64,000 nucleotides of DNA from Candidatus Doudnabacteria bacterium (GCA_039931165.1 JBDTSL010000002.1:71134-135133), one strand, 5' to 3'; positions 1,372 through 54,087 are shown, counted from the first letter of the stretch. A program made the numbers and translations. The notes: generated by a model not told the origin, from the letters alone.

Positions 1372-2613
1372 TTATATTCCCCTGTCACGCATGGCCTGGG
1401 CTATGCGATTAATTGCCAAAATAAACGCCGCGTTGCGAAAATCCGTGTGATATTTTTCTTTGGCGGAGACAACTCCTTTCCATGCCACGAACATGTAACT
1501 TGTCAGTTTTTTCAGCACCTCGGCTTTGCTCCAATAATTCCCGCTTAAGTTCTGCGACCATTCCAGATAAGAGGTTGCCACACCGCCGGAATTCGCCAGC
1601 ACATCCGGAATGACCCAAATACCTTTCTTACGCAATATTATATCAGCTTCCGGCGCGGTCGGTCCATTGGCCATTTCCAAGACCAGTTTTGCTTTGATCT
1701 TTTTGGCATTGCCTTTATGAATCTGGTTCTCAAGAGCCGCCGGCACCAGAACGTCCACGGGCAATTCCAAAAGTTTTTCATTTGTGACATCAACCGTGCC
1801 AGGAAACCCTTTCAATCCTCCCCGCTCCCGCTTATGGTCGTGGATTTTTTTTATATCGAGCCCACGGGGGTTGTAAATTCCGCCCTTGGAATCGGACAGC
1901 GCCACAACCCTAAAACCGGCCTCGACCGCGAGTTGCGCAAAGAACGACCCGACATTGCCGAAACCCTGAACCGCGATGCTCGTTCCTTTTTTTAGTTTCA
2001 AAGCTTTTGCCGCAAGTTTCAAAATCTCGACCCCGCCAAACCCGGTCGCTTCCTCGCGGCCTTGCGACCCGCCCATACTTAGAGGTTTTCCGGTGATCAC
2101 CGCCGGCGTAAACTTACCGACCAGCTTGGAATATTCGTCCACCATCCAGCCCATGATCTGCGGAGTGGTGTTGACATCGGGTGCTGGCACATCGACATTT
2201 GGACCGATGTCTTTATAAATCAGGTCTATAAATTTCCGGCTTAGCCGTTCCAGTTCGCCTACTGACAGTTTTTTCGGATCGACGATAATCCCGCCCTTGC
2301 CTCCGCCGTAAGGCACGCCTACCACCGCGTTTTTTATGCTCATCCAAAAAGCCAGTGCCTTGACCTCGTCCATATTCACCTTCGGATGATAGCGCAGCCC
2401 GCCTTTGAAAGGCCCTCTGGCGTCATTATATTGCACCCTGAAGCCGACAAAGATTTTTGTCTCGCCGTTATCCATCCTTACCGGAATCGAAACTTCGATA
2501 ATTCTGGCGGGATGTTTCAGCAAGGTATGGATTTCTTTATTTAAGCTTAAAGCCTTCGCGGCATTATCCAGCTGCCGCATGGCCGATTTGAACGGATTGA
2601 TCTTAATTGGCAT
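1372..2613 (-). CDS. gdhA: Glu/Leu/Phe/Val-family amino acid dehydrogenase (glutamate dehydrogenase-like)
   Basis: 413 aa; catalytic Lys motif 'PYGGGKGG'; Rossmann 'GFGNVGSF'; overall ELFV dehydrogenase layout. Confidence 0.85.
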   Translation of the reverse strand: MPIKINPFKSAMRQLDNAAKALSLNKEIHTLLKHPARIIEVSIPVRMDNGETKIFVGFRVQYNDARGPFKGGLRYHPKVNMDEVKALAFWMSIKNAVVGVPYGGGKGGIIVDPKKLSVGELERLSRKFIDLIYKDIGPNVDVPAPDVNTTPQIMGWMVDEYSKLVGKFTPAVITGKPLSMGGSQGREEATGFGGVEILKLAAKALKLKKGTSIAVQGFGNVGSFFAQLAVEAGFRVVALSDSKGGIYNPRGLDIKKIHDHKRERGGLKGFPGTVDVTNEKLLELPVDVLVPAALENQIHKGNAKKIKAKLVLEMANGPTAPEADIILRKKGIWVIPDVLANSGGVATSYLEWSQNLSGNYWSKAEVLKKLTSYMFVAWKGVVSAKEKYHTDFRNAAFILAINRIAQAMRDRGI

Positions 2614-2618
2614 ACTTT

Positions 2619-3542
2619 TTACCCCTGATCCATATGAAGATATTTTTCCGCGTCGAGGGCGGCCATGCAGCCCCAGCCGGCGGCGGTCACAGCCTGCCTA
2701 TACCGATAATCGCGGACATCGCCCGCCACGAAAACTCCCTCGACATTGGTTTTGGTCTGATCAATGGGCTCTATATAACCTTTGGCATCAAGTTTGAGCT
2801 GGCCCGCAAAAATTTCCGTGTTCGGTTTGTGGCCAATGGCAATAAACGCCCCTTCGATCGGACGTTCCTCAATCTTGCCCGAAATTGAATCTTTCACTTT
2901 CACACCCGCGAGGCGGTCACTGCCTAAAAACTCTTCCACGGCTTTATTGTATTCAATGCTTATCTTCGGATTCGCTTTGGCCCTGTCCTGCATGATCTGG
3001 GAGGCCCGCAGTTTATCGCTCCGGTTCAGTATTGTAACTTTTTTTGCGAATTTCGTCAGATATAAAGCTTCTTCCAACGCCGCGTCGCCGCCGCCCACGA
3101 CAATTATGTCCTTTTCCTTGAAAAAAAATCCGTCGCAGGTGGCGCAGGAGGAAATTCCTTTACCGCGGAATTTTTCTTCCGAAGGCAGGCCCAGCCAGAT
3201 CGAGGAAGCGCCGGTGGCGACAATGATGCTTTCGGTTTGATAAGTCTTGCTCCCCGATGTAACGCTGAATGGCTTTTGGCCAAATTCAACTTTGACAGCA
3301 TCTTCAAAAATAATCTCCGCGCCAAACCTCTTTGCCTGATCGATCATTTTTTGCATCAATTCCGGACCCTGAACTCCTTCGGGAAATCCCGGAAAATTCT
3401 CCACTTCCGACGTGATCATCAGTTGTCCGCCGTAAGTAAACCCGCCGATGACCAAAGGCTTGAGATTGGCTCTGGCCGCGTATAGGGCGGCAGTAAGGCC
3501 AGCCGGGCCGGAACCAATGATGATGAGCTTATGCGTATCCAT
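2619..3542 (-). CDS. trxB: thioredoxin-disulfide reductase
   Basis: 307 aa; FAD motif 'IIGSGPAGLTAA'; redox-active 'CATCDGFFF'; NADPH GxGxxA 'VVGGGDAALEEA'. Confidence 0.85.
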   Translation of the reverse strand: MDTHKLIIIGSGPAGLTAALYAARANLKPLVIGGFTYGGQLMITSEVENFPGFPEGVQGPELMQKMIDQAKRFGAEIIFEDAVKVEFGQKPFSVTSGSKTYQTESIIVATGASSIWLGLPSEEKFRGKGISSCATCDGFFFKEKDIIVVGGGDAALEEALYLTKFAKKVTILNRSDKLRASQIMQDRAKANPKISIEYNKAVEEFLGSDRLAGVKVKDSISGKIEERPIEGAFIAIGHKPNTEIFAGQLKLDAKGYIEPIDQTKTNVEGVFVAGDVRDYRYRQAVTAAGWGCMAALDAEKYLHMDQG

Positions 3543-8489: not shown

Positions 8490-8969
8490 ATGGAACAAGA
8501 AGAAGTTAATAATATCAGCGCGCTTTTCAAAAAACCGCTTGTCCCAACTCCACAATTAGACAAACCGACGGTAAGGAATACTCCGCCGCCGAGTAATGTC
8601 CGTACTCCGGCACCAACCACCGATCGCTTTGCCCAAGTCCGCGAGACAGCACGCAAAACGCAAATCAGCGCTCCTGTAAAAAATAATCCGGTCAAAAAAG
8701 ATTTTGGCGTGATCGATTTTTCAAAAAAAAGTGTCGTGCGCGGCGTATCCAATACTGAAAAAACCCGCTCTCAGCTCTACAAACAGCTGGGTGGCGTATT
8801 TAACAGCTCAACACAGAGATCAGAGGTTACCAAAGAATTGGGCCGTCAGATTTCATCCGGCGGCATAGTCACTAGAGGTAGTGCGAAAAAAGCCCTTTGG
8901 AATTTGCAAAAAGCCGGGAAGCTTACAAGCGGACAAGTCAGCCGCACCTTCAAAAAATTGGGAATGTGA
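8490..8969 (+). CDS. hypothetical basic Pro/Thr-rich protein
   Basis: 159 aa ORF with own promoter-like ttgatt...tgctataat upstream; no recognisable domain. Confidence 0.4.
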   Translation: MEQEEVNNISALFKKPLVPTPQLDKPTVRNTPPPSNVRTPAPTTDRFAQVRETARKTQISAPVKNNPVKKDFGVIDFSKKSVVRGVSNTEKTRSQLYKQLGGVFNSSTQRSEVTKELGRQISSGGIVTRGSAKKALWNLQKAGKLTSGQVSRTFKKLGM

Positions 8970-9010
8970 TCTGGAAGTAAAAAATTTAAATTAAAAATTC
9001 AATCAAAACT

Positions 9011-9037
9011 AGGCTTGAAAAATTAAGCCTTTTTTTG
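9011..9037 (+). terminator. rho-independent terminator
   Basis: aggcttgaaaaattaagcct hairpin followed by T7. Confidence 0.7.
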
Positions 9038-9061
9038 TATAATAACCTAGCTTTAGTTATG

Positions 9062-9179
9062 TTTACGAACAAAAGTAGGTGCACAGCGAAGCGAGCACGA
9101 TTTTTGTCCGAGAGGAGCAGTATGTCGACCGTAGCATATCCGCCATCAAGCGGATTGCGAAATGTCGACCAACTGCGAC
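9062..9179 (+). ncRNA. structured non-coding element, family 1, copy a
   Basis: About 75% identical to 37063-37194. Shares closing stem acgaacaaaa / ttttgt(c/t)cg and core gagaggagcagt...ccgtagc...gcgaa...caactgcgacga. Internal hairpin shows compensatory change (ccgc..gcgg here vs ccga..tcgg in copy b). Preceded by a tataat -10. Confidence 0.55.
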
Positions 9180-9214
9180 GAGGTCCCATCGTCTAACGGT
9201 TAGGACGCCAGGTT
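9180..9214 (+). other. partial duplicate of tRNA-Glu 5' half (35 nt, up to anticodon position 35)
   Basis: ggtcccatcgtctaacggttaggacgccaggtttt is identical to 9511-9545; diverges after the anticodon-loop T-run. Confidence 0.8.
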
Positions 9215-9268
9215 TTTCCCGCGAAGCGGGACCACGCTTCGCGTGGCATCCTCCTTAATTTACAATGT

Positions 9269-9532
9269 ATGCATTATCTGTATATTCTCAAAAGCCAATC
9301 CAAAGATTGGTACTATGTAGGAATGACGGACAATCTAAAAAAACGACTAGCACAACATAATTTAGGAAAAACTAAATCAACCAAACCTTATAGGCCATTC
9401 AAGATAGTGTATACTGAAACCTATCAAAGCAAGACTGAATGTAGGAAGCGAGAGTTGTTTATAAAAAATAACCACGCTGCTAAACAAGCTATTGTAGAAA
9501 ACATGTATATGGTCCCATCGTCTAACGGTTAG
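9269..9532 (+). CDS. GIY-YIG nuclease superfamily protein (YhbQ/UPF0213-like)
   Basis: 87 aa; 'YLYILKSQSKDWYYVGMTDNLKKRLAQHNLGK' GIY-YIG motif plus conserved Arg/Glu. Last 7 codons (MVPSSNG) are encoded by the tRNA-Glu 5' end. Confidence 0.7.
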   Translation: MHYLYILKSQSKDWYYVGMTDNLKKRLAQHNLGKTKSTKPYRPFKIVYTETYQSKTECRKRELFIKNNHAAKQAIVENMYMVPSSNG

Positions 9533-9585
9533 GACGCCAGGTTTTCATCCTGGTAATCCGGGTTCGATTCCCGGTGGGATCACCA
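9511..9585 (+). tRNA. tRNA-Glu (anticodon UUC)
   Basis: Cloverleaf: acceptor ggtccca/tgggatc; D-loop tctaacggttagg; anticodon stem ccagg/cctgg with loop ttTTCat; T-arm ccgggttcgattcccgg; encoded CCA. Confidence 0.85.
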
Positions 9586-9691
9586 AAGAATTTTAAATGC
9601 AAACACAAACAACTACATCATCTTTGGGGCGCTGACCCCTGATTGCGGCTTGCATATCTTTCGTTTATAACAGGCCGGGCTTACGACAATC

Positions 9692-10609
9692 ATGAACATC
9701 TGGACTATTTTATTGACTGTGGCCGGACTTTGTTTGTTCGAGGTGGTTAACAGCATAGACAACGCGATCATCAATGCCGAAGTGCTGAGTACCATGAAAG
9801 AAAAAAGCCGGAAGTGGTTCCTGCTTTGGGGAATCCTGTTTGCCGTGTTTATCGTCCGCGGAATACTGCCGTGGCTGATAGTATTCGCGACCACTCCGTC
9901 TTTGGGCCTTCTTGGCTCTTTTGCAGCGACTTTCAGCAATGACCAGGCAGCCATAAGGGCCATAGAACAATCGACTCCGATCCTGTTTTTGGGCAGCGGC
10001 ACATTTTTGATCTTCCTTTTTTTTCACTGGCTGTTTCTGGAGCCAAAAACGGTCGGATTGCCGGGAGAATCTTTCTTCATAAGACAAGGCGCGTGGTTTT
10101 ACGCCCTGGTCTCGGTAATTCTGACCGGCATCGTCTGGCTGGCTCTGAAACAAAACCCCCTTGCCGCCTTCGGCGCTGTGGTCGGCTCCACCGCGTTTTT
10201 CATTACCCACGGATTTAAGGAAAACGCCGAGCAGGCGGAAAAAAAACTGATGAAAGGCGGAATGTCAGATACCGCCAAGATCATGTATTTGGAAGTCATC
10301 GACACGACATTTTCGATCGACGGGATCTTGGGCGCGTTCGCATTTACCCTCTCGGTTCCTTTGATCGTTCTGGGAAACGGGTTGGGCGCTTTTGTGGTGC
10401 GGCAAATGACCGTGGGCAACATAGAAAAGATCAAACAGTACCGTTATCTGAAGAATGGCGCGATGTATTCGATACTGGTCTTGGGCACGATAATGCTCCT
10501 GGACGGATTCGGGATTCACTCTGCCCCGTGGGTTTCTCCGGTCATAACTTTTGCGATCATCAGTTATTTCTTTTTTAAATCAAAACAATTGATAAAGCCG
10601 GCCCAATAG
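9692..10609 (+). CDS. TerC/DUF475-like integral membrane protein
   Basis: 305 aa, about 8 TM segments; 'NSIDNAIINAEVL' resembles the TerC-family (E/S)xDNAxx motif. Confidence 0.5.
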   Translation: MNIWTILLTVAGLCLFEVVNSIDNAIINAEVLSTMKEKSRKWFLLWGILFAVFIVRGILPWLIVFATTPSLGLLGSFAATFSNDQAAIRAIEQSTPILFLGSGTFLIFLFFHWLFLEPKTVGLPGESFFIRQGAWFYALVSVILTGIVWLALKQNPLAAFGAVVGSTAFFITHGFKENAEQAEKKLMKGGMSDTAKIMYLEVIDTTFSIDGILGAFAFTLSVPLIVLGNGLGAFVVRQMTVGNIEKIKQYRYLKNGAMYSILVLGTIMLLDGFGIHSAPWVSPVITFAIISYFFFKSKQLIKPAQ

Positions 10610-10724: not shown

Positions 10725-11924
10725 TTAGAGAGAACTCAACGCGTCCGGTTTGACCTTGATTATTTTATCATCGCCCGAACGAACTGTTCCCCGTCCGTCT
10801 CGGTTGGATGTCGTGATATACAAATATCCGTCAGGTCCCAAAACCACAGCGCGTAAACGGCCATACGTCCCTTTCAGGTGTCCCACGAAAGCTGCGATCT
10901 TGCCATCCGAGCCCAATTTCGCTTCATAAAGAGCGGAGCCTTTCAACCCGCCAAAGAACAGGCTGTGATTGACATAAACAATTCCTCCCGGCGCCCAAAT
11001 GCTCCTGCCGGAATGTTTTATCGGTCCCACGGTTCCGGCTGCTACATTATCGCCGACGCTGTTTGGCCATCCGTAATTTTTCCCTTTTTCTATCAGATTT
11101 AATTCATCCTGACAGCAGTTGGGCCAAGTTGCTGAAGGACCGTGTTCCGTCTCCCACATCCGGCCCCTGTCGTCCCAGACAATCCCTTGCGGGTTGCGGT
11201 GGCCGTATGACCAGACCGCGGTTCCGAACGGATTATTCGCCGGGATCGCGCCGTCGGCTGTTAAGCGCAAAATTTTGCCGTTCAAAGAATTCAAGTCCTG
11301 GGCTGAATTCGGATTTTGCGCGTCGCCTGTGGTGATATAGAGCATACCATCGGGCCCAAAAGCCATCCGTCCGCCGTCGTGATAAATGGATGAAGCAATA
11401 TTCCCGATAATGACCTTGTCTTCAGTAAGCTTGTCGCCATTTAGCTTGAACCGGACGATCTGGTTCGTTTTGCCCGTGGTAGTATAGAATAAATAGATCA
11501 AAGAATTTTGCTCAAACTGCGGATGCAGGACCATGCCCATTAGTCCCCCTTCACCCACGTGCGCTACCGAAGGAATTGTTATGGTCGCCGGATGCGCGCC
11601 AATGCGCCTGATCGCTCCAGTCCGCTGAGTGACCATCATATCTCCCCCTGGCAGGAACACAATGTCCCAAGGAACATTCAGTCCGGTTGCCACAACCTGA
11701 ACCGGCCGAGCAGGCACGGGTGGTTTAACAACCGGCGGGGCTGATTGCGGAGATGTAGCGGAAGCGGTGGTCGGTTGAACGGGATCAGGCTGTTGGCCGG
11801 CAGGGACCGGTTGCATGGCTGTCTGGTTACAGCTGGCCGCAGTCAGTAAAACTAAGCCGGCGAGTAAAATAATTTTTTTTCCGGCGAAGCCGGATCCCGC
11901 TGGGCGGGACATTTTTATATTCAT
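10725..11924 (-). CDS. PQQ-dependent sugar (glucose/sorbosone) dehydrogenase family beta-propeller protein, secreted
   Basis: 399 aa; signal peptide/lipobox 'LLTAASC'; Pro-rich linker; 'GLNVPWDIVFLPGGDMMVTQRTG.IRRI' and 'HDGGRMAFGPDGMLYITTGD', 'YGWP' motifs of the soluble GDH/SGDH family. Confidence 0.75.
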   Translation of the reverse strand: MNIKMSRPAGSGFAGKKIILLAGLVLLTAASCNQTAMQPVPAGQQPDPVQPTTASATSPQSAPPVVKPPVPARPVQVVATGLNVPWDIVFLPGGDMMVTQRTGAIRRIGAHPATITIPSVAHVGEGGLMGMVLHPQFEQNSLIYLFYTTTGKTNQIVRFKLNGDKLTEDKVIIGNIASSIYHDGGRMAFGPDGMLYITTGDAQNPNSAQDLNSLNGKILRLTADGAIPANNPFGTAVWSYGHRNPQGIVWDDRGRMWETEHGPSATWPNCCQDELNLIEKGKNYGWPNSVGDNVAAGTVGPIKHSGRSIWAPGGIVYVNHSLFFGGLKGSALYEAKLGSDGKIAAFVGHLKGTYGRLRAVVLGPDGYLYITTSNRDGRGTVRSGDDKIIKVKPDALSSL

Positions 11925-23196: not shown

Positions 23197-26100
23197 TTAT
23201 TTCTTCAGCTTTTTCTTCTTACCCGCTTTATCGCCGGCAAATTCCAATTCTTTCACTTTCTCTTCGACTCGATCCGTGGTGGTCATTTCCCGCAGCTCGG
23301 CCGCGTCATCCAAGGCCAGTTTCTCGCCGATCAATTCCACGTTCAGGCACAACGATTGCAGTTCCTTGACCAAAACCCGGAAAGATTCCGGAACGTTCGG
23401 CTTCTTGATCGGCTCACCTTTTACGATTGATTCGTAAGTTTTGGCCCGGCCGACCACGTCGTCGGATTTTATGGTCAGCATTTCCTGCAAAGTGTGGGCG
23501 GCGCCATATCCTTCCAAAGCCCAGACTTCCATTTCCCCGAATCTCTGGCCGCCGAACTGGGCTTTGCCGCCCAATGGCTGCTGGGTGATCAGGGAGTAGG
23601 GGCCGGTGGAGCGGGCGTGCATCTTGTCGTCAACCAAATGATGCAATTTCAGCATGTAAATTATTCCGACCGTGACTTTTTCAATAAATTGCGTGCCGGT
23701 TTTGCCGTCATACAAATATACTTTCCCATCTTCCGGGTATCCGGCTCGCTTCAGTTCCGCTTTGATGATTTCTTCCGGCACACCGTCCAGAGCGGGAGAG
23801 GCGACTTTATAACCCAATTTTTTCGCGGCTAATCCCAAATGAGTTTCCAAGATCTGTCCGATGTTCATACGAGAGGCCACACCCAAAGGATTTAAAATAA
23901 TATCGACAGGTGTGCCGTCGGCCATAAATGGCATGTTCTCAACCGGGATGACCTGGGAAATAACGCCTTTATTCCCGTGCCGGCCGGCCATTTTGTCGCC
24001 AACCTGGATTTTCCGCAATACCGCCACCGAGACCTGGATCGAGCGGATAACGCCTGAAGGCAGTTTGTCGCCCTGCTCTCTGGAAAATTCGCGGATGTTC
24101 ACGACTTTGCCGTATTCGCCGTGGGGCAGGGTCAGGGAAGTGTCTTTTACGTCGCGAGATTTCTCGCCGAAAATCACGCGCAGCAGCTTTTCTTCGGCTG
24201 TCAGGTCGGTTTCGCCTTTCGGCGTAATTTTGCCGACCAAAATATCTCCGGCCTTGATCTGAGCGCCGACGCGGATAACGCCGTTCTCGTCCAGATCTTT
24301 GAGTTTTTCCTCGCCGACGTTCGGAATATCGCGGGTAATGATCTCAGGTCCCAATTTCGTATCGCGCAAGTCAACTTTAAAATCTTCTATGTGGATCGAA
24401 GAATAGCGGTCCTGTTCCACGACGCGGGAAGAGATCAGGATCGCGTCTTCATAATTTCCGCCCTCCCAGGACATGAACGCCACCAGCATGTTTTGTCCCA
24501 AAGCCAACTCGCCTTTTTCTATGGCCGCGCCATCGGCGATCGGCTGACCGGCTTTGATCTCCTGGCCTTTGGTCACGGTCGGGTGCTGGTTGATAGAGGT
24601 GGATGTATTGGAACGGATAAATTTCTGGAGCAAATATTCTTTTTTTCCGGCGGAGCCGGATCCGGCTTTGCCGGACTTGCTTGGCAAAATAATAATCTTA
24701 TCACCTGTCACGCTCAAAACTATGCCGTCGGTTTCGGAAATCACTACCTGGCCCGAGTCGTAAGCGGCTTTGGCTTCCACGCCGGTACCAACAACCGGAG
24801 AATCGGGTTTGATGCAGGACACGGCCTGGCGCTGCATGTTCGAGCCCATCAAGGCGCGGTTGGCGTCGTCATGTTCCAAAAAAGGAATAAGAGAGGTTGT
24901 GACCGAAATGATCTGCTTAGGAGAAACTTCGACGAAATCAATGTCAGCCGTTTCGGCGATCGAAGGTTCGGCGTTGACCCTGGCCGAAGTCCGCAGTTCG
25001 GTGAAAGAACCGTCCGGTTCGGAAAGAACAGTTGCTTGGGCGATAACCGTGAATTGCTCTTCGTAGGCATCCAAATACTGGATGTCGTCGGTCATCCGGG
25101 GTTTGATCTTTAAAGCGGCAAGAGTTTTGTTTAGTGATAATTTTTCGGCCGCTTCTTTGGAAATTTTCTCGCCGGCGCTGACCACCACTTCTTCATTCGC
25201 ATCGAGCAGATCAACTAAAGCCGTCTCTCCGACAGCAGCCTTGCCGTCATTGGCCACATTCTTTTTGACTTTGCGGTAAGGAGTTTCGATAAACCCAAAA
25301 TCATTGATCCTCGCATAGCTGGCCAAATGCGCCACCAGGCCGATGTTCGGGCCTTCGGGAGTGGTGATAGGACAGAGGCGCCCATAGTGGGAGCGGTGAA
25401 CATCGCGGACCTCAAACCCGGCCCGCTCGCGGGAAAGTCCTCCCGGCCCCATGGCCGAAAGCCTGCGTTTATGCTCGAGCTCGGCTAAAGGATTGGTCTG
25501 GTCCATGAACTGGGAAAGCTGCGAGGATGAGAAAAACTCCTGAATGACCGCGACGATAGGACGGACGTGGATCAGCTGGGCCGGGGTCACGGTCTCAATC
25601 TCAGCCAGTGACATCCTGTCTTTGGCAATCCTGCTCATGCGGGCCAGACCGACGCGGAATTTTTGCTGGATCAGCTCGCCGACCGCTCGGACGCGGCGGT
25701 TGGACAAATGATCGATGTCGTCCATGATTCCCTGGGAGTTGTTCAGACGGATGATCTCGCGGATTATGTCGGTTAGATCTTCTTTGGTCAGGATCCGGTC
25801 TTCGCGGTCTTTTACGTTTAGGCGCTGATTGAGTTTGTACCGCCCGACCTCGGACAGGTCATACCGGTCGGCATGAAAAAACATCGCTTCGATCAGGGAG
25901 CGGGCATTATCCACCGTGGCCAGATCCCCGGGGCGGATCCTTTTATAAACTTCCTTGTAGCCCTCATCGGCGGATTTTGACGGATCTTTTTCCAGAGTAT
26001 TTTGGATATAGCGCATGTCGGGGTTGGTATCGACATCGGCAAAAGCCGCTAAAATTTCTTCATCAGTCCCGAATTTAAAGACGCGCATCAGGGCTGTGAT

Positions 26101-33046: not shown

Positions 33047-34009
33047 TCACCTGTAACCTCTTAAAAGTTTTCTGCCTTGCTTATAAACATTATACCAGAT
33101 TGGGGAAAAGATCAGGTCAAAACTGCCAGGATAATTTACTTCAAACCCGCCGAAGCCTTTTTTAAACCTGGTGATGCCGGCCCAGGAATGATCTTTTTCT
33201 CCATCGGGGGCAATGCCGCCGAAATCATAAAATTTCATGCCGGAATTTTTAGCCAGCTTGATGGCTTCCCAGTGCAGAACATAAGGAGACATGGCTTCTT
33301 TCATCTTCACCGATGTTCCGCCGTGCAGGTAGGTGGCGGTGGATCCGAATAAGGTCAGGATCATGGCGGACAGAGCCTGTCCTTTATATTCCGCGATCAA
33401 AATTTTCAAATACTGCGGCTCCAGATGCTCCCACATCTTAAAATAATAATCCTGCGGGTGCAGTTTTATCTTATTTCTCCCGGCGGTTTCCATGAACAAT
33501 TGCCAGACCTGGATCAGATCCTGCCAGCCGGCCTGACGCACAGTGACACCTTTGCGCTGGGCGAGATTGATGTTGTATCGGGTTTTTGGTTTCATCGAGA
33601 TCAGTAATTCTTCCTCGGTTTTTTCTCCGCCAGAGGCGGATCCGCCTTCGGCGGACAAACTCAGCATCCAATTATTCACCGGCTGGATGTCTTTGACAGC
33701 GCGCGGCAAGCGTACGATTTGCCCCGGTTCAACGCGAGAAAAAATAATCGAATGATCGGAATCCAATTTTTTCAGATCATCCAGAGCCGCATCGATATTC
33801 CCCAGAGGTCCGCGCGGGCAGTAGACGAATTTTTTGCCTAGAGGCAGATCCGTCTCGATTCCCAAATTCACAAAGTCATCCCCGGAAAAACGGTGAATTT
33901 TTTGGCCCAAGGACTGCTGAAATTCGCCCCAAGCGAAAGATTGCAAAATCGAGCCGCCGAGCTCGATTGTTTTTTTGTCCCATAATTCTTGGGTGAGGTT
34001 TGATATCAT
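33047..34009 (-). CDS. FemAB-family peptidoglycan interpeptide bridge aminoacyltransferase-like protein
   Basis: 320 aa; 'ALSAMILTLFGSTATYLHGGTS', 'KLAKNSGMKFYDFGGI' typical of FemAB/MurM GNAT-fold peptidyltransferases. Confidence 0.7.
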   Translation of the reverse strand: MISNLTQELWDKKTIELGGSILQSFAWGEFQQSLGQKIHRFSGDDFVNLGIETDLPLGKKFVYCPRGPLGNIDAALDDLKKLDSDHSIIFSRVEPGQIVRLPRAVKDIQPVNNWMLSLSAEGGSASGGEKTEEELLISMKPKTRYNINLAQRKGVTVRQAGWQDLIQVWQLFMETAGRNKIKLHPQDYYFKMWEHLEPQYLKILIAEYKGQALSAMILTLFGSTATYLHGGTSVKMKEAMSPYVLHWEAIKLAKNSGMKFYDFGGIAPDGEKDHSWAGITRFKKGFGGFEVNYPGSFDLIFSPIWYNVYKQGRKLLRGYR

Positions 34010-36972: not shown

Positions 36973-37062
36973 GCCTTAACCTTGAACATTAATCAAAAAC
37001 TTGCTATTCTTTGTAAGCTAATCAGAGGTGTCGCCCTGAAATGCAATTTTTTAACTTTATTA

Positions 37063-37194
37063 TTTACGAACAAAATTAGGTGCGCAGTCCCGACCTGTCG
37101 GGGCGAGCACGAATTTTGTTCGAGAGGAGCAGTGAGGATACCGTAGCGCATTCCGACAAATCGGGATCGCGAAGGTAATCCCAACTGCGACGAC
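37063..37194 (+). ncRNA. structured non-coding element, family 1, copy b (rpsT 5' leader)
   Basis: Homolog of 9062-9179; ends exactly at the rpsT start codon; closing stem acgaacaaaat/attttgttcg; inner hairpin cccgacctgtcgggg. Confidence 0.55.
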
Positions 37195-47498: not shown

Positions 47499-48533
47499 AT
47501 GATCACCCAAGATTCCGATGAAACCAACATTATCAGCCCTGCTCCCGTTTCCGACGAAACGCTTTTTGAGGCAACTTTAAGGCCGCAAAAACTGGCAGAT
47601 TACGTCGGCCAGGAAAAGATCAAAGAAAATCTGAAGATCCTGGTCGAGGCGGCGTCCGCGCGCAAAGAAACACTGGAGCACATCCTGCTTTACGGCCCGC
47701 CGGGACTGGGCAAAACCACGCTGGCCCATATCATCGCCCGCGAGATCGGCGCAAATATCAAGATCACTTCCGGCCCGGCCATAGAAAAAGCCGGAGACCT
47801 CGCTTCAATTCTGACCAACCTCGGCGAAAACGATGTTTTGTTTATTGATGAAATTCACAGGTTGAATAAAGTGGTGGAAGAAATTCTTTATCCGGCCATG
47901 GAAGATTATTGCCTGGACATTGTCCTGGGCAAAGGCGCCGGAGCCAAAGCCCTGCGCCTGGATCTGCCGAAATTCACGCTGATCGGGGCCACGACCCGCA
48001 TCGGCCTGCTTACCGGTCCGTTCCGCGACCGGTTCGGCATGACCTATCGTTTGGATTATTATGAAGAAAATGAAATTGAACAGATCATTGAGCGGGCGGC
48101 CAAAATTCTGAATATTAAAATTGATTCCGACGGCAAAGCCGAGATCGCCAAAAGAGCCAGGCGCACCCCGAGAGTGGCCAATCGCCTGCTGAAACGCGTG
48201 CGGGACTTTGCGCAAGTCAAAGCCGGTGGTAAAATTAATCAAACGGTGTCCCAGCAGGCCCTGGCCCAGCTGGAAGTGGATACCTTGGGCCTCGATGGCA
48301 ATGACCGCCGGATATTGGAGGCTTTGATCGATAAATTTTCGGGCGGGCCGGTGGGACTTTCCTCTATTGCCGCGGCCACCTCCGAAGATATGGGCACGAT
48401 CGAGGAAATTTACGAACCTTTTCTGCTGCGCCTGGGGCTGATCGCCCGCACACCCAAAGGGCGCGTGGCCACCGCTGCGGCTTATGATCATCTTAAAAAA
48501 ATCCCAAAACAAACAGCGCAAACTCTACTCTAA
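47499..48533 (+). CDS. ruvB: Holliday junction branch migration DNA helicase RuvB
   Basis: 344 aa; '[19 protein letters not shown]', '[18 protein letters not shown]' Walker A, 'LFIDEIHRL' Walker B. Confidence 0.95.
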
Positions 48534-48550
48534 TAGATACATTAAATAAA

Positions 48551-48674
48551 AATAATCCGAATTTGCGAGGAGCCCTGTACCAGCGCTCGGTACGGGGCGA
48601 CGAAGCAATCTATTCATTAGGATAGACTACCGCGCGACCGCCATGATTAAGACTCAAAAGATATAGCGGTCGCT
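48551..48674 (+). ncRNA. structured non-coding element, family 2, copy B
   Basis: Homolog (in + orientation) of 19141-19250; closing stem atttgcgag/ctcgcagat; lies between ruvB and a small membrane-protein gene. Confidence 0.5.
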
Positions 48675-48699
48675 CGCAGATGCGTAAAAGTTAAAATAT

Positions 48700-48921
48700 A
48701 TGACACCATATCAACCAACCTCCCTCTGGCCCACCATCCTGGCTCTGGTTTTCTATATCCTCATGGCCGCGTACGTCCTCTACAGCCTGCTGGCAATTTA
48801 CGCCCTGGTGAAATTCGGCCGGTCCAAAGGCCTGGCGATCCTGGTCTCGCTTTTTTACCTGGCGATTTCATCGGGCCTGTACGCGGCAGCCGTGATAAAC
48901 CTGAATAATATTAAATTTTAA
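48700..48921 (+). CDS. hypothetical small membrane protein (two TM helices)
   Basis: 73 aa hydrophobic ORF immediately downstream of family-2 element copy B. Confidence 0.35.
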   Translation: MTPYQPTSLWPTILALVFYILMAAYVLYSLLAIYALVKFGRSKGLAILVSLFYLAISSGLYAAAVINLNNIKF

Positions 48922-48946
48922 TCTTCTATTTTCTATTTTCTAGCTT

Positions 48947-49516
48947 ATGAATTGGCCTAGCTTCAAACCTTCTTTTTTCCCCGGACAGCAGGAGAACGAA
49001 AGAATCTGCCTGGTGGTGCGCGAACACTGGATGGTCCTGTTCTTCCGCCTTTCTGCCTGGCTGATATTTGCGGCGGTTTTGGTTTTGTCCGACTGGTTTA
49101 TCGGCATGTACCTTCCGGCTCTCAAATCCGACCCTTGGGTTGCGTGGGTCAGCCTGCTGCGCTCCGTCTATCTCATGTTTCTGATGCTCGGACTGCTGAT
49201 CATCTGGGTCATCTATTACCTGAATGTGCAGATCATCACCAATGAGCGCGTGGTGGACATTGAGCAGGATTCGCTTCTGAAGCGGAGAGTGTCCGAACTG
49301 CACTTAAGCCGCTTGGAGGATGTCACCTCCGAGGTCAACGGCATATTCGGCACGTTTCTGAATTACGGCAATGTCTATATCCAGACCGCGGCCGAGACCG
49401 AACGGTTCACATTCTCCCGCGTCCCCGATCCGGCAGCCATCGAAAAAATGATCCTCGACCTGTACGAACAACTGCCGGAAAACGAAAAACTCCAAAAAGA
49501 ACCGCTAAAAAAATGA
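48947..49516 (+). CDS. membrane-flanked bacterial PH-domain protein (YdbS/bPH_2-like)
   Basis: 189 aa; two TM helices followed by 'ERVVDIEQDSLLKRRVSELHLSRLEDV...GNVYIQT' bPH_2 pattern. Confidence 0.55.
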   Translation: MNWPSFKPSFFPGQQENERICLVVREHWMVLFFRLSAWLIFAAVLVLSDWFIGMYLPALKSDPWVAWVSLLRSVYLMFLMLGLLIIWVIYYLNVQIITNERVVDIEQDSLLKRRVSELHLSRLEDVTSEVNGIFGTFLNYGNVYIQTAAETERFTFSRVPDPAAIEKMILDLYEQLPENEKLQKEPLKK

Positions 49517-49700
49517 AAAAAGACTCGAAAGAGTCTTTTTTCATCCCGAGGCCGTTTGGCCGAGGGATCTGCAACTTACCGCCGAAAGGCGGTTTTTTCA
49601 TGCATCTGGCATATTCTCTCCCCTTTCAGGGGAGATGTCGCCATAGGCGACAGAGAGGTAGCTACCTCTCCCGAAAAAATCCGACTCAAGGGTTTTTTTT
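49516..49700. terminator. array of at least six consecutive perfect hairpins (convergent-gene terminator cluster)
   Basis: aaaaagactcgaaagagtctttttt; accgccgaaaggcggtttttt; ctcccctttcaggggag; gtcgccataggcgac; gagaggtagctacctctc; followed by a T8 tract. Confidence 0.6.
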
Positions 49701-49844
49701 AGAAAAATCCGCCCAAAGCGACAATACTCCCACAGCGGCGAAAAGCGCCGCTTCCAGCCAATTGTTTTTTTGGACTGCCTCGATCAAAGCAATCCCGAAA
49801 AACAGGATAAAAACCGTAAGATTTGCGAATTTTATATTTTTCAT
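49686..49844 (-). CDS. possible 52-aa hydrophobic peptide (not in ORF track)
   Basis: Hand translation MKNIKFANLTVFILFFGIALIEAVQKNNWLEAALFAAVGVLSLWADFSKKNP; two hydrophobic segments; no homology support. Confidence 0.25.
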   Translation of the reverse strand: MKNIKFANLTVFILFFGIALIEAVQKNNWLEAALFAAVGVLSLWADFSKKNP

Positions 49845-49861
49845 AGTTGTAAAAAATTAAG

Positions 49862-49902
49862 GTTTATCTCCGACATTTGGAAAAATTTTGTCAGAATTCG
49901 AC
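49862..49902 (+). repeat. 41-bp direct repeat R1a
   Basis: gtttatctccgacatttggaaaaattttgtcagaattcgac; about 37/41 identical to 50025-50065; a looser third copy at 41036-41063. Confidence 0.75.
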
Positions 49903-49911
49903 CCGAGGCCC

Positions 49912-49982
49912 ATCCCAGACATTAGCTGGCCTTGGGCTCAGCCCGAGGCCTAATGCTATCGGAAGCTGGGATCTAAACCTGC
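49912..49982 (+). repeat. nested-helix element E1 (related to 51715-51746)
   Basis: P1 atcccag/ctgggat, P2 cattag/ctaatg, P3 ggcct/aggcc, apical gggctcagccc. Core g.ctcagcccgag..c.aatgct.tcgg shared with E2. Confidence 0.6.
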
Positions 49983-50024
49983 AGTTTAATACTTAGCCTC
50001 GACCGTTTGAAAAATTTATAGGCA

Positions 50025-50065
50025 GTTTATTTTCGACACTTGGAAAAATTATGTCAGAATTCGAC
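50025..50065 (+). repeat. 41-bp direct repeat R1b
   Basis: gtttattttcgacacttggaaaaattatgtcagaattcgac. Confidence 0.75.
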
Positions 50066-50156
50066 GCGTGAGCTAAGAATTCTGGATAATTTTTCCCGTG
50101 TCGCCAATTTTTGGCGCCACCTTTTGTTTGGCACAAAAGGTGGCATAAAAAAATAA

Positions 50157-50459
50157 CTATTCGCTGGATTTGGATTTGCCGGCTAAATTCGCCAACCCCA
50201 CAGCCACGCAGTGCTGGCAAAAAAATCCTTTGCGGGAACTGCAGGTGCATTTCCATCTCAGCCCGTTCGGTGTGGACTCCAGCATCACGGTCCGGCGCTG
50301 ACCGTCCCCATGCTTGACCCGAGCCTCGATCCTGAAGGTCTTTTTTTCGTGAATTTGCACATCGCCGGCATCCGCGATGGCCTGGCCATAGCGAAAATGC
50401 GACCTGCTCGACAGGTCTTTTAATTCTTCCAAGGTTAACAATGAATTCAGAGGCTTCAT
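50157..50459 (-). CDS. SWIM zinc-finger domain protein
   Basis: 100 aa; 'WKCTCSSRKGFFCQHCVAV' = CxCx(n)CxH SWIM signature; start overlaps the stop of the upstream nuclease gene by 4 nt. Confidence 0.7.
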   Translation of the reverse strand: MKPLNSLLTLEELKDLSSRSHFRYGQAIADAGDVQIHEKKTFRIEARVKHGDGQRRTVMLESTPNGLRWKCTCSSRKGFFCQHCVAVGLANLAGKSKSSE

Positions 50460-51196
50460 GAATTTGCTTTAGCCAGCGCCAAAATATCCTTTTGGTACTC
50501 GCAGTCTTCGCAGTCAGCCGTATATTTCGGGAGCTTATCACTATGCAGTAATTTCTTAATATCCATCAGCGCCTTCTCTATCCATTTATCGCTTCCTTTG
50601 TATGGCAGAACCGTGATCTCAAAATCAAGCCTTCCGTCAAAAGCCTTTCTGTCTTTTTTACCGTTGCAATACACAAAGTACCCGGTATTGGAAACCTTGA
50701 AGCCATTCATCCGCAGAAGCCACTGGTAAACTTCCATCTGCCGCTTATAACTCATCTGCCAGTCGGCATCCAGCGTTACTTCGTCATTTTTTGATGTGGC
50801 CTTGTAATCGGCCACGATCAGCTCCCCGTTTGGCTTGACCCAAACATCATCCACCGCGCCGGTAACATAGAGATTGGTTTTTTTATGGTGAAATTGTACG
50901 CCTTTAAAATTTTCCCTCCATTCATTCATCTTTTCATGCGGAAACGGAACCGCATCAATCCCGTATTTTTTTAACAGCGGGTGCTTGCTGCCCTTGGCGC
51001 GATGAGCATCGAATTCCTGTTTCAATAAATAGTCTACCGCGTTATTCAGGGTATACGGAGCGCAGCCCGACGGGCCGATGTTCAGTTTTCTGTCCAGATA
51101 AAAACACCGCGGACAGCGGACAAAGCCTTCTATCCCCGACCGGCTCATTTTATATGAATCAAGCGAGTCTTTATCGTATTTTCCTCGATATGGCAT
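50456..51196 (-). CDS. Cas4/RecB-like PD-(D/E)xK nuclease with 4-Cys cluster
   Basis: 246 aa; N-terminal 'CPRCFY' and C-terminal 'ADCEDCEY' cysteines; 'GAVDDVWV...GELIVADYKATS' matches the RecB/Cas4 motif II-III (IVDYKTG). Confidence 0.7.
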   Translation of the reverse strand: MPYRGKYDKDSLDSYKMSRSGIEGFVRCPRCFYLDRKLNIGPSGCAPYTLNNAVDYLLKQEFDAHRAKGSKHPLLKKYGIDAVPFPHEKMNEWRENFKGVQFHHKKTNLYVTGAVDDVWVKPNGELIVADYKATSKNDEVTLDADWQMSYKRQMEVYQWLLRMNGFKVSNTGYFVYCNGKKDRKAFDGRLDFEITVLPYKGSDKWIEKALMDIKKLLHSDKLPKYTADCEDCEYQKDILALAKANS

Positions 51197-51233
51197 ATAT
51201 CCTATGTAATTAAAAGCGAAGCTGGCGCGCCGC

Positions 51234-51632
51234 CTACTTATTCAAATAAGTAATTGTTAGTTGTAAGACCGTCGCGAACGATACCCACAGAAGATATGGA
51301 ATATTGGCATAGACAATCCACCGAAAATGCGGATAAATGGCCACCAGCGCCCAGATGAGCGTAGCGAGCACCAGTACTATATCTATAGCCGCGAGCAGAT
51401 TATTTTTTAACCCGAACTGCAAAGGAGTAAAAGCAAAATTAAAAATCAGGTTAAGTACGAACGGCAAGGCGACTATCCAAGGTAATTTTCCGGTAAAAGT
51501 TTTGTAGAAAACAGTGCCGAAACTAACCGCAATGATCGCGTACAGCACTGTCCACACCGGGCCGAAAAGCCAGCTCGGCGGCGCCCACGCCGGCTTTATG
51601 AGAGTTGAATACCAATTGTAAGCTTTATTCAT
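51234..51632 (-). CDS. tspO: TspO/MBR family tryptophan-rich sensory protein
   Basis: 132 aa, 4-5 TM; 'LIKPAWAPPSWLFGPVWTVLY' conserved N-terminal motif. Confidence 0.8.
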   Translation of the reverse strand: MNKAYNWYSTLIKPAWAPPSWLFGPVWTVLYAIIAVSFGTVFYKTFTGKLPWIVALPFVLNLIFNFAFTPLQFGLKNNLLAAIDIVLVLATLIWALVAIYPHFRWIVYANIPYLLWVSFATVLQLTITYLNK

Positions 51633-51714
51633 ATTGGTTTAATTATAAATTATTTTTTCGAATTACGCCTGCCTGCCGGCAGACGGGTAATTGCCGCCGG
51701 AGGACATGAGCTTT

Positions 51715-51746
51715 CTCGGACTCAGCCCGAGCACAATGCTCTCGGG
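51715..51746 (+). repeat. element E2 (related to E1); overlapping alternative hairpins
   Basis: ctcggactcagcccgagcacaatgctctcggg: ctcgg/ccgag and cccgag/ctcggg stems are mutually exclusive. Confidence 0.55.
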
Positions 51747-51764
51747 TCCGCACCTGTGGATAAC

Positions 51765-51834
51765 TTGACATCTAAGGTCTACCTATGCTATAATTGAAAT
51801 ATAAATGGGGACTGCGTAGCGGGCCCCGTTTTTT
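51765..51834 (+). promoter_or_regulatory. consensus sigma-70-like promoter (TTGACA-18-TATAAT) followed within ~40 nt by a hairpin + T6
   Basis: ttgaca 51765-51770, tataat 51789-51794; ggggac...gggcccc followed by tttttt at 51829-51834; no ORF downstream on this strand. Confidence 0.5.
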
Positions 51835-52090
51835 ATTTTGGAAAAATCATAATTCCATGTCCTATAATCTTGCCTTTTGAATCTTTTCTTAGTTTACTCT
51901 TAATAACTTGAAAATCTTCTTTGCTTTGTTATTTTATATATCTCATCCACCAACTGCATGGATTTCTGCCACACTATCAAGTCTTTGAAATTATGTATAG
52001 TCATGGTTTTACTTAGGGTGGAGGTTTGAGCGCCCAGCGCGCGGTAGGTTTGAGGTTTCAGCGCCCACCCGAGGGTTCATTCTGAGCGCT

Positions 52091-52145
52091 CCCCCCTGCA
52101 CCCTGACCCCTACTTTCCTGACCCCTCGGCGCTGACCCCTTCCCC
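52091..52145 (-). repeat. G-run cluster (GGGGTCAG x3 plus further G4-6 runs), potential G-quadruplex, minus strand
   Basis: On the + strand: cccccc...ccc..cccc...cccc...cccc..cccc within 55 nt; embedded in a GC-rich 170-bp tract (51980-52150) with gcgccca repeats inside AT-rich DNA. Confidence 0.5.
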
Positions 52146-52152
52146 TGGCAAT

Positions 52153-52515
52153 CTACCCTCTTTTTCGAACGTTTACTTTTATATAACTTATTTTCGGAAT
52201 TCTTTTTAGAAATGCTCTATTTTTTGACATAATAGTTACTTTGGCGACCTTGCGGCCAGAATGCCATCCAAGCTTAGGCGCGCCATTTACTCTCGGAGCG
52301 TTCACAAATTTTGTATGATTACAATTTTTACAGGCTGTAACGAAATTTTCAATTCCATCATATCCACCCTTACTGACTGGAATGATATGGTCTACGTTCA
52401 ATGAACTAGATTTCTTCCGAACACCGCAATAACCGCAAATATATTTATCCCTGATATATACTCGCTTTCTGAGTGCTGGCTGGATAGTCTTTCTTGTTTT
52501 ATCCCTAAATGCCAT
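52153..52515 (-). CDS. HNH endonuclease
   Basis: 120 aa; 'CGYCG...NVDHIIPVSKGGYDGIENFVTACKNCNHTK' canonical HNH with Cys4 zinc site. Confidence 0.8.
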   Translation of the reverse strand: MAFRDKTRKTIQPALRKRVYIRDKYICGYCGVRKKSSSLNVDHIIPVSKGGYDGIENFVTACKNCNHTKFVNAPRVNGAPKLGWHSGRKVAKVTIMSKNRAFLKRIPKISYIKVNVRKRG

Positions 52516-52641
52516 TTGTTTTCTTTAAATTACTTCCTTGGCAATCCTCACCACTTTCGCAATATTTTTTTTCATATTTTAATTATTGAAATTTTAATAA
52601 ATATAATAACAACTTCTGATTAAAGTTCTCAGGCTAAGAAT

Positions 52642-54078
52642 TTATGCTTCCAAATCAGCATTCTCTAATACAATAAGTGCCTTATTCTTATCAACTAAAT
52701 TCAAATTAAATCCTGTTTCGTCATAAGATAATCCATGTACCCACCCAATTGCAGACATTGTGTGCTTAGCGTGTTTTAGATAATTACCTCTCACGTTCTT
52801 TGCTGTTACCCCTTTAGTTTTATCGAACTGTTTATTGAATTGTTTAATAAGTAATTCTTGCTCAGGCTGGGTTAATTTTCTAAACATGAGTACCAAATCA
52901 CGAATAAATAATAAATCAGTCATAGAATCAGCGTGCATTACAAATAGATAAAATTCTTCCAAACTTATATATTCTAGTTCTAACAATAACTTTATTATAA
53001 AACTTACCATATTTACTCCACCCCAAGTCATCATGGATGTGTTATTAGTATAAATATCTTTCTCACAATCCAAATTCTTACAAACAGCAAATTTAATACC
53101 CGATTCTGTTAAGGTTAATTTGGAGTTATCTTCTTTATTCTTATTCTTGAGTAAATGGGTTGCTAATCCCAACCTTATTAAATAATTTTTTTCTTGCCTA
53201 ATAAATAAGTCTCTAGGTCTTGTTTTATGTTTTTTCTTTTTAAATTTAATTTTAAGGCTGTTAAGAATAGTTATTAATTCTTTACTTTTTTTTGATATAT
53301 CAATATAACCCTTTTTACCTAACTTAGACTTAATTAAGATAACAATTTTTTTTAAGTTGGAGACTAAATTATTATCAATGTAGCCTTGGTCTGGAATAAT
53401 GTACCACCCTCTCCAGAGTGAATTTGTAAAATCACTTTTCACCTGTTTTTTCTTTTTAGAAATACCTATCCAAGATTTAATAAAATCAAACAGTACTTTT
53501 GATACTTTTTTGCTTTCGCTAGAAAATTTAACAATTTCAATTTCTTTTTTCACTTCTCGTTTTAGTCGCTCTCTATCCTGCCATTCTTTAAGAATTACAT
53601 CAGTTACTTCAAAACACTTATCATTATCCCAAAGATATTCAAAAAACATTAAAGATTGTTCAACTGTATTGTTTTTATTTGATTCGGGATCAATAAATAT
53701 ACTCGCTTCTACATTCTGCAAAAAAGCCGCTCTACTAAAGTTTGCAGATCCAACCAAACAGACCCAGGCTCCATTTTTTTCGGAAAGCCACATTTTAGGA
53801 TGAAAGGTGCCTGCTTCAAATTTGCATATTTTAACTTCAACTCCAACCCCTATCAACCTTCTAATTGCTGTTGGTTGAGTTATATCCATATCATTGCTAC
53901 ATATAATTCTAATGTCTCCCTTATTGATAATGATGGATTTCAAATCATCAATTAACATATCAACACCACTATTTCTAATATATGCTACAGCCAAAAATAA
54001 CTTATCGCTATCTTTTAATAGTTCCTTTATCTTTTTTAGATGATTGGGTAGAGAAATGATCTGATTTTGAATAAACAT
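52642..54078 (-). CDS. PLD-family (HKD) nuclease domain protein with long uncharacterised C-terminal region
   Basis: 478 aa; N-terminal domain 'LFLAVAYI...HPKMWLSEKNGAWVCLVGSANFSRAAF' = single HxK...GSxN PLD motif (BfiI/NgoFVII/Nuc-like). C-terminal ~300 aa Lys-rich, no match. Confidence 0.6.
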   Translation of the reverse strand: MFIQNQIISLPNHLKKIKELLKDSDKLFLAVAYIRNSGVDMLIDDLKSIIINKGDIRIICSNDMDITQPTAIRRLIGVGVEVKICKFEAGTFHPKMWLSEKNGAWVCLVGSANFSRAAFLQNVEASIFIDPESNKNNTVEQSLMFFEYLWDNDKCFEVTDVILKEWQDRERLKREVKKEIEIVKFSSESKKVSKVLFDFIKSWIGISKKKKQVKSDFTNSLWRGWYIIPDQGYIDNNLVSNLKKIVILIKSKLGKKGYIDISKKSKELITILNSLKIKFKKKKHKTRPRDLFIRQEKNYLIRLGLATHLLKNKNKEDNSKLTLTESGIKFAVCKNLDCEKDIYTNNTSMMTWGGVNMVSFIIKLLLELEYISLEEFYLFVMHADSMTDLLFIRDLVLMFRKLTQPEQELLIKQFNKQFDKTKGVTAKNVRGNYLKHAKHTMSAIGWVHGLSYDETGFNLNLVDKNKALIVLENADLEA

Positions 54079-54087
54079 AAGGACTAT

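Follow-up and report, generated by a model that had tools for sequence, protein, structure and literature searches.

A palindrome-interrupted tRNA-Glu duplicate and a minimal GIY-YIG nuclease gene as one copy of a probable selfish cassette family resident in bacterial tRNA genes

Why should a bacterial tRNA gene be preceded by a second copy of its own 5' part, with a nuclease gene lodged between the two? The question is raised by the sole tRNA gene in a 64,000-nt stretch of a Candidatus Doudnabacteria MAG (the window), a tRNA-Glu(UUC) with encoded CCA that scores 64 bits against the Rfam tRNA model. Positions 1-35 of this gene, GGTCCCATCGTCTAACGGTTAGGACGCCAGGTTTT, form an exact direct repeat, found at 9182-9216 and again at 9511-9545, and 100 dinucleotide shuffles yielded 0 matches to it. 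An earlier note, made from the sequence alone, had recognised the duplication while placing the upstream copy 2 nt too far to the left, and had read the whole as a small mobile unit that left the tRNA gene intact. The survey described below shows the same architecture throughout a family of loci, with zero, one or two units in related Doudnabacteria, and in this respect supports that reading.

The two repeats are 294 bp apart and enclose about 50 nt of non-coding DNA and one 87-aa ORF (Table 1). Directly after the upstream copy come two adjoining perfect 15-nt hairpins, TCCCGCGAAGCGGGA (9217-9231) and CCACGCTTCGCGTGG (9232-9246), each a 6-bp GC stem with a 3-nt loop, and then CATCCT (9247-9252), which is identical to tRNA-Glu positions 36-41. 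The disabled copy therefore comprises tRNA positions 1-41, with a 30-nt insert (PAL30) after position 35. The hairpins, the remnant of tRNA continuation and the GIY-YIG ORF between the copies that the earlier note described are all present, at 9217-9252 and 9269-9532. Its statement that the tRNA supplies the end of the ORF also stands, and can be made more exact: the last 19 coding nucleotides and the stop lie inside the intact tRNA, which provides the last base of the Met81 codon, the residues VPSSNG and the TAG stop, the latter being part of the D-loop. The closest homologues, 70-76% identical and likewise 87 aa long, end in ...(A/V)(L/S)SSNG, so that there too the ORFs read into the 5' end of tRNA-Glu.

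Table 1. Features of the tRNA-Glu locus and solo palindromes in the window (coordinates of the window)
Feature	Coordinates	Strand	Basis or remark
Near-consensus sigma-70 promoter	9015-9043	+	TTGAAA-17-TATAAT, 11/12 matches
Structured leader RNA	9052-9181	+	homologous copies, RNAalifold
Disabled tRNA-Glu copy, positions 1-35	9182-9216	+	identical to intact gene
PAL30, 30-nt near-palindrome at anticodon positions 35/36	9217-9246		two 15-nt hairpins
CATCCT, continuation of disabled copy (tRNA 36-41)	9247-9252	+	same continuation 3' of insert in sister loci
GIY-YIG nuclease gene, 87 aa, Slx1/YhbQ (UPF0213) type	9269-9532	+	Pfam, PDB, Foldseek
Intact tRNA-Glu(UUC), functional copy	9511-9585	+	
Solo PAL30	11880-11909	minus-strand gene	in frame, N-terminus of 399-aa ORF, encodes SRPAGSGFAG
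Solo PAL30	24646-24675	minus-strand gene	in frame within rpoB, encodes SGKAGSGSAG
Solo PAL30	33626-33655	minus-strand gene	in frame within 320-aa ORF, encodes SAEGGSASGG

Two familiar identities can be set aside at once. No U-run follows the hairpins on either strand, which excludes an intrinsic terminator. As for a group I intron in the anticodon loop, which the earlier note had argued against, no ribozyme core was matched at E<=10, the non-coding DNA between the repeats amounts to about 50 nt and the downstream tRNA is complete; a scan of 8900-9750 with Rfam and intron models returned the tRNA as its sole match at E<=10.

The promoter upstream is presumably the native tRNA-Glu promoter, which now stands 5' of the leader, the disabled copy, the ORF and the tRNA; we infer that all four are co-transcribed from it. 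An equivalent promoter lies 5' of the unoccupied tRNA-Glu of another Doudnabacteria locus (L161) and of the cassettes of L163 and L165. Between promoter and disabled copy lies an RNA of about 130 nt, of which further copies were found in the window at 37052-37193, in L007 (3786-3923) and in L163 (812-951), all sharing an invariant GAGAGGAGCA and a 3' GCGACGA. It adjoins the +1 position of tRNA-Glu in three Doudnabacteria, and the ATG of rpsT (S20) in the case of window 37052-37193. For the four sequences RNAalifold predicts 41 pairs, 21 of them with compensatory changes, and no Rfam family matched, making the leader a candidate for a new cis-regulatory or processing RNA. Since the leader abuts +1 of the disabled copy, it is this copy that holds the native position of the tRNA. 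Elsewhere in the window, a region at about 48000-60000 has a G+C content of 0.355-0.40, as against about 0.47-0.50 in the remainder, and a more negative GC skew, and may be foreign or otherwise unusual.

The ORF encodes a GIY-YIG protein (Pfam PF01541, 63.3 bits against a cut-off of 22.6, E 2.7e-17). Its AlphaFold model, with a mean pLDDT of 86, has the three-stranded sheet packed on helices expected of this fold (beta 2-9, beta 15-20, alpha 23-31, beta 44-52, alpha 55-67, alpha 69-81), and disorder is predicted for residues 82-87, the tail that the tRNA encodes (pLDDT <50). Foldseek matched the model to 1zg2 first and then to Slx1, I-TevI being matched as well, and PDB profile searches gave 1zg2 (E 2.4e-9), 1ywl (2.6e-8) and SLX1 (2.5e-4). 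By both sequence and fold, the closest solved relatives are the UPF0213 proteins BH0048 and EF2693, followed by Slx1, with I-TevI and UvrC farther away, which places the protein in the Slx1 lineage. NCBIfam gave no match to the protein, and PADLOC only weak partial matches to PDC-S14. Across 169 ORFs of the family, Y5, Y16, R26, H30 and E62 are conserved at 99-100%; we take their catalytic roles to be those assigned by analogy with I-TevI. Beyond E62 only K66 is conserved, and no Asn reaches 85% in the same 169 ORFs, so that the C-terminal Asn is absent. The family members are 65-125 aa long (median 82), and the whole protein is a single catalytic domain in which Pfam and AlphaFold reveal no sequence-specific DNA-binding module. 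Among the window, L163, L165 and L166, dN/dS is about 0.08 with synonymous sites saturated: the ORF is under strong purifying selection. A GIY-YIG survey of 2006 described the Slx1 lineage as minimal, without the C-terminal Asn, and vertically inherited rather than selfish, Slx1 itself being a structure-specific nuclease that cuts branched DNA at junctions (PMC1564403).

The arrangement is far from peculiar to this locus. We collected 161 loci with 186 ORFs, 80 loci coming from contigs of one genome per species, 80 from metagenome contigs and one being the window; the hosts are Patescibacteria, Bacteroidota and others. A co-oriented tRNA lies within 150 nt of 160 of the 186 ORFs (86%) and an opposed one, within that distance, of none. 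The ORF precedes the tRNA in 130 of the 160 cases and follows it in 30. More than 20 anticodon classes are found beside the ORFs, among them those of Glu, Leu, Arg, Ser, Gln, Met, Pro and Thr, and further of Lys, Ala, Cys, Gly, His, Ile, Tyr and Phe. Beyond the ORF, on the side away from the tRNA, a collinear partial pseudo-copy of that tRNA, at least 12 nt long, is present in 122/160 cases, and at 73 loci an insert separates two collinear tRNA segments. Most of the other ORFs stand in tandem arrays, at contig ends or between unrecognised tRNA remnants. Interrupted copies are mostly cut to positions 1-25 or 1-45, two near-full-length ones carrying two inserts each (L013, L066), and nearly all are accompanied by an intact copy. 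The ORF tree groups by tRNA isotype across host phyla, and the type and position of the palindrome follow the ORF clade. In 33 of 48 loci the 14 nt immediately 5' of the palindrome are those of the neighbouring tRNA, as against 11 of 239 same-isotype tRNAs elsewhere. The recurrence of the same three parts at many tRNAs, in unrelated phyla, points to a selfish DNA element of wide distribution. A published description of a tRNA-linked GIY-YIG cassette or of its palindrome was sought and not found in the open-access literature, which may miss one.

The inserts themselves proved to be more than a scar. The earlier note had the unit target the anticodon loop; the breakpoint at 35/36 is the seat of a palindromic element of 30 nt, conserved and distinct from the ORF, and not the place at which ORF and tRNA copy join. 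Sister cassettes have their palindrome at 17/18 or 22/23, yet the tRNA copy continues to about position 37-45. The pair of GC hairpins is thus no accidental feature but a conserved component, present also as solo copies elsewhere, for instance within rpoB. Bacteroidota have as insert the perfect palindrome CCTGCCTGCCGGCAGGCAGG (PAL20), and so do the Leu- and Arg-type cassettes of CPR hosts. This 20-mer occurs exactly at 54 places in 878 kb; of its 91 near-matches, 78 have an ORF no more than 150 nt away, and 13 PAL20-like sites are farther off. Glu-, Ser-, Cys- and Lys-type CPR cassettes carry 15-nt hairpins, singly or in pairs, that follow the pattern TCCSSC-NNN-GSSGGA. An element of PAL30 type is found at position 35/36 also in L001, L004, L017, L028, L055, L081/82 and L163-166, and the 24 stem positions of PAL30 are identical in the window, L163, L165 and L166 despite the synonymous saturation of their ORFs, showing that purifying selection acts on the palindrome too. 

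Of 85 mapped insert sites, 56 belong to D-, anticodon- or T-loop classes and 15 to the D-stem class, in which the boundary is ambiguous by 1 nt or falls at the junction of loop and 3' stem (GGATA|GAGC and GGTTAG|GAC are examples of such boundaries). In L108 and L116 one palindrome is nested in the centre of another. The inserts are exactly 20 or 30 nt long and separate neighbouring tRNA positions, not one base of which is repeated, and this absence of a target-site duplication rules out a MITE. Palindromes also interrupt tRNA-Glu copies that have no ORF, one of them full-length with a 30-nt insert at 35/36 (L034) and the other partial with PAL30 at the same site (L004).

Outside tRNA genes, the three solo PAL30 copies of the window are all in frame (3/3), each coding for a Gly/Ser/Ala-rich decapeptide, and all three are preceded by a T-run on the + strand. 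Most aligned RpoB homologues, including P0186, a fragment of a closely related RpoB (72% identity in the search), lack about seven of the PAL30 residues at this loop, where two further homologues carry a different, shorter insert. GC skew has a single sign over the whole window, so that a replication-strand bias of the palindromes is possible, the four sites being too few for a test. Some further palindromes were also observed. A PAL20 variant in L157 (1048-1067) lies inside a 402-codon open frame, just 5' of a GGCVRDLL motif which we take to be typical of tRNA nucleotidyltransferases, and the frame is intact only with an effective insert of 21 nt. At 49619-49651 of the window, a further pair of 15-nt hairpins with different stems, TCCCCTTTCAGGGGA and GTCGCCATAGGCGAC separated by gat, may be a diverged palindrome element. 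In L134 (1-640), a GIY-YIG ORF has a direct repeat of about 130 nt on both sides; the repeat ends like a T-arm (GGGGTT...CGAGTCCCTC) with a palindrome in the T-arm-like loop, and the target may be a tmRNA or other tRNA-like gene instead of a tRNA.

How labile are these units? Among Doudnabacteria, tRNA-Glu carries no cassette in L161, where the promoter and the tRNA stand alone, one in the window and in L165, and two in tandem in L163/L164, with palindromes at 17/18, 22/23 and 35/36; the flanks of these loci are not syntenic. Tandem arrays are also found in L070, L078, L048 and L153, and a single tRNA cluster, in L111, holds six ORFs. This cluster includes a tRNA with anticodon CTA (2355-2428), labelled Pyl by ARAGORN, which may be an amber-reading tRNA. 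Decayed older cassettes adjoin newer ones. The most informative case is L129, whose flanks are shared syntenically with L099 and L106: the decayed remains of an older cassette, with the resident tRNA-Leu allele, come first, and after them a different cassette, in which the pseudo-copy and the intact tRNA-Leu both belong to another allele. The unit can therefore bring a whole tRNA, and the replacement is compatible with co-conversion of flanks. The earlier note had the unit carrying a tRNA 5' half, to which L129 shows that it is not confined. Loss can be seen as well: L158 and L159, at 99.7% identity, are told apart by a deletion of 63 nt between two palindromes, one route by which disabled copies become truncated.

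Related genomes offered an incomplete match to the empty site that the earlier note had expected. No empty site with the flanks of the window's locus was found, and synteny around it is not conserved; orthologues of the neighbouring DUF475 gene (about 75% identical) stand in another gene order with no tRNA upstream. One of these orthologue loci is L161, in which the unoccupied tRNA-Glu lies 2.9 kb away. Near-identical cassettes were found among the surveyed loci as tandem copies within a locus and never at different loci, so that recent movement is not demonstrated. Searches of phage collections and IMG/VR contigs gave no cassette match, and those of plasmids one distant match, B. subtilis yazA; no vector for spread between phyla is thus known. 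A second kind of element may use the tRNA-Glu of L166, immediately 3' of which, and convergent with it, lies a gene for a 508-aa large serine recombinase (1870-3396; Resolvase/Recombinase/Zn_ribbon_recom).

The reading that we favour, with a probability of roughly 0.6, is that selfish, homing-like cassettes reside in tRNA genes and spread by recombination-dependent copying, and that 9182-9585 is a member of this family. A cassette consists of a disabled copy of part or all of the host tRNA, interrupted by a palindrome in a tRNA loop, of a gene for a bare Slx1/YhbQ-type GIY-YIG nuclease, and of a second, intact copy of that tRNA; the clades of the ORF go with tRNA isotype, copy number varies, tRNA alleles are replaced and solo palindromes occur elsewhere. 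As to mechanism, a nuclease with no DNA-binding domain would recognise DNA structure: tRNA-gene DNA would fold into hairpins, which the enzyme would cut where loop meets stem. The siting of palindrome inserts mainly in tRNA loops or at loop/3'-stem junctions is indirect evidence for structure-specific cleavage. Repair of the break would use a cassette-bearing template, with the flanking tRNA segments as homology arms, and such homing-like copying would reproduce the partial tRNA duplication. Repeated rounds would give rise to tandem arrays, while the disabled copy would be worn down by recombination, either among palindromes or among the repeats. The intact tRNA would keep the host viable, and the tRNA promoter, once captured, would drive the ORF. 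The palindromes are probably the structure bound by the nuclease, and are probably mobilised in trans to other sites. Several points speak against the cassette reading. A bare 87-aa nuclease cannot by itself account for isotype specificity, and the intact tRNA copy should stay cleavable. Besides, it is the sequence of the palindrome, beyond its structure alone, that is conserved across phyla, for which the reading has no explanation, and the synonymous saturation among the tRNA-Glu relatives also fits long vertical persistence.

A two-component formulation seems to us possible, and we advance it tentatively. In it, a minimal GIY-YIG nuclease of the Slx1 lineage and its own perfect 20- or 30-bp palindromes would form a system, spanning Patescibacteria, Bacteroidota and other phyla, in which the palindromes insert at hairpin loops and the nuclease gene parks in tRNA genes. 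The targets would be tRNA-gene loops, the centres of other palindromes and coding T-run sites such as that in rpoB, the hairpin loops receiving palindromes while the DNA is single-stranded or extruded. In-frame copies would survive as Gly/Ser/Ala linkers, and the nuclease gene would propagate within tRNA genes, each time with a spare tRNA copy alongside.

The main rival of the cassette reading, to which we give a rather low probability and which is not exclusive of it, takes the palindrome for the primary mobile element and the GIY-YIG protein for a trans-acting mobilising nuclease in the manner of a RAYT. The nuclease gene would then lie by tRNAs because palindromes prefer loops of the tRNA type, and the tRNA duplication would be a by-product of break repair and no homing device. 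Several observations speak for it: the solo copies at 11880, 24646 (rpoB) and 33626, which all keep the frame and all have a T-run before them on one and the same strand, in a window of single-sign GC skew; the 13 PAL20-like sites more than 150 nt from ORFs, one of them in the 402-codon frame; the ORF-less tRNA-Glu copies of L034 and L004 with PAL30 at 35/36; the nested palindromes; and the way in which palindrome type tracks ORF clade. However, strand transfer by GIY-YIG enzymes is not known, the inserts show no target-site duplication, and this explanation would not tell why the tRNA segment adjoining the palindrome is that of the neighbouring tRNA, why ORF clades are isotype-specific, or how the L129 cassette came to carry its own tRNA allele.

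The remaining explanations fit the data poorly. That the protein is a housekeeping repair or RNA-processing factor of YhbQ/YazA type, domesticated, co-transcribed with tRNAs and immobile today, with tRNA fragments due to local slippage and hairpins acting as signals for transcript processing or stability, would agree with the strong purifying selection and long persistence at tRNA-Glu in Doudnabacteria, with the location of the ORF between the tRNA promoter and the tRNA, and with the view that prokaryotic Slx1-type proteins are vertically inherited repair proteins (PMC1564403). We consider it improbable nonetheless, given loci with 0 to 6 copies and tandem arrays, the same 20-mer palindrome and related ORFs at different tRNAs of unrelated phyla, the replaced resident allele in L129, the decayed cassettes beside newer ones and the palindromes in frame in rpoB. 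Far less credible still is the idea that the hairpin inserts are removed from RNA like introns, the interrupted copy being a functional split or intron-bearing tRNA gene. The inserts do lie in tRNA loops, and the full-length copy of L034 with its 30-nt insert and the near-full-length ones of L013 and L066 with two inserts would suit it; against this, an intact copy stands beside nearly every interrupted one, most interrupted copies are truncated, and no ribozyme or known intron model was matched. We know of no bulge-helix-bulge splicing endonuclease in bacteria. Finally, tRNA genes are the classic integration sites and a serine recombinase gene lies next to the L166 tRNA, so that the repeat might be thought the attachment-site duplication of an integrase-borne island, or else an artefact of assembly, which the earlier note had held out as what would undo its reading. 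Yet only 294 bp and one 87-aa ORF, with no integrase, separate the repeats, it is the 5' portion of the tRNA that is repeated, and the same architecture in more than 100 independent assemblies effectively refutes both.

If the cassette reading is correct, the Slx1/YhbQ branch of GIY-YIG proteins, held to consist of vertically inherited repair proteins (PMC1564403), would include a large selfish radiation specialised on tRNA genes. It would explain the genes annotated as "GIY-YIG nuclease family protein" and the odd tRNA fragments near tRNAs in CPR and Bacteroidota, and would reveal a source of tRNA-gene turnover and allele replacement, as well as a family of exact palindromes able to inactivate tRNA copies and to lengthen essential proteins, RpoB among them, by linkers of 10 residues. 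A nuclease that is bare and guided by structure, partnered by a defined 20-bp palindrome, would also be an experimentally tractable system. For annotation, such tRNA fragments and hairpins should not be taken for att sites, introns or terminators.

The cassettes can be compared with several known systems. With REP/RAYT elements they share short, GC-rich, dispersed palindromes and one nuclease-type gene flanked by the palindrome. RAYTs are HUH/Y1 transposases, and REPs are imperfect, extragenic and not aimed at tRNA loops; the protein being GIY-YIG, membership in this class is rejected. Fungal mitochondria harbour short mobile GC palindromes, such as the GC clusters of yeast and the PstI palindromes that flank tRNA genes in Neurospora, in AT-richer genomes rich in GIY-YIG genes. 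These differ from PAL20 and PAL30 in sequence and host, the likeness being a lead rather than a test, and we know of no demonstrated link between them and a specific nuclease gene. Like integrase islands in tRNA genes, the cassette duplicates part of the tRNA and leaves the gene intact; islands, though, have an integrase, usually a repeat of the 3' part and kilobases of cargo, whereas here there is no integrase, a repeat of the 5' part and 294 bp.

The Rickettsia palindromic elements are selfish palindromes lying in frame in protein-coding genes and also in RNA genes (reviewed in PMC10969869). PAL30 too is in frame in protein-coding genes (3/3 solo copies). It is 30 bp long, while the Rickettsia elements measure about 100-150 bp, are confined to Rickettsia and have no associated nuclease gene, and owing to these differences of size and taxon they are a resemblance only. 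In protein sequence and fold, the best matches remain Slx1-Slx4 and the UPF0213 proteins (YhbQ, YazA, BH0048, EF2693), likewise minimal and without the C-terminal Asn, although B. subtilis YazA is only 32% identical to the cassette protein. They are held to be repair factors passed on vertically, for which neither mobility nor linkage to tRNAs is known, unlike the cassettes. A further analogy is that of the Seg proteins of T-even phages. SegB is encoded in a tRNA gene cluster, acts in the tRNA region and is reported to promote segmental amplification there (PMC13096335). Like these free-standing homing endonuclease genes, the cassette is a selfish GIY-YIG gene placed between genes instead of in introns, and both, as we propose for the cassettes, would be copied by break repair. 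However, Seg proteins have 200-250 aa, DNA-binding domains and an origin in the UvrC/I-TevI lineage (PMC1564403), whereas the cassette protein is a bare 87-aa domain of the Slx1 lineage with no DNA-binding module, and its gene is chromosomal, in CPR and Bacteroidota, and accompanied by a disabled tRNA copy and a conserved palindrome.
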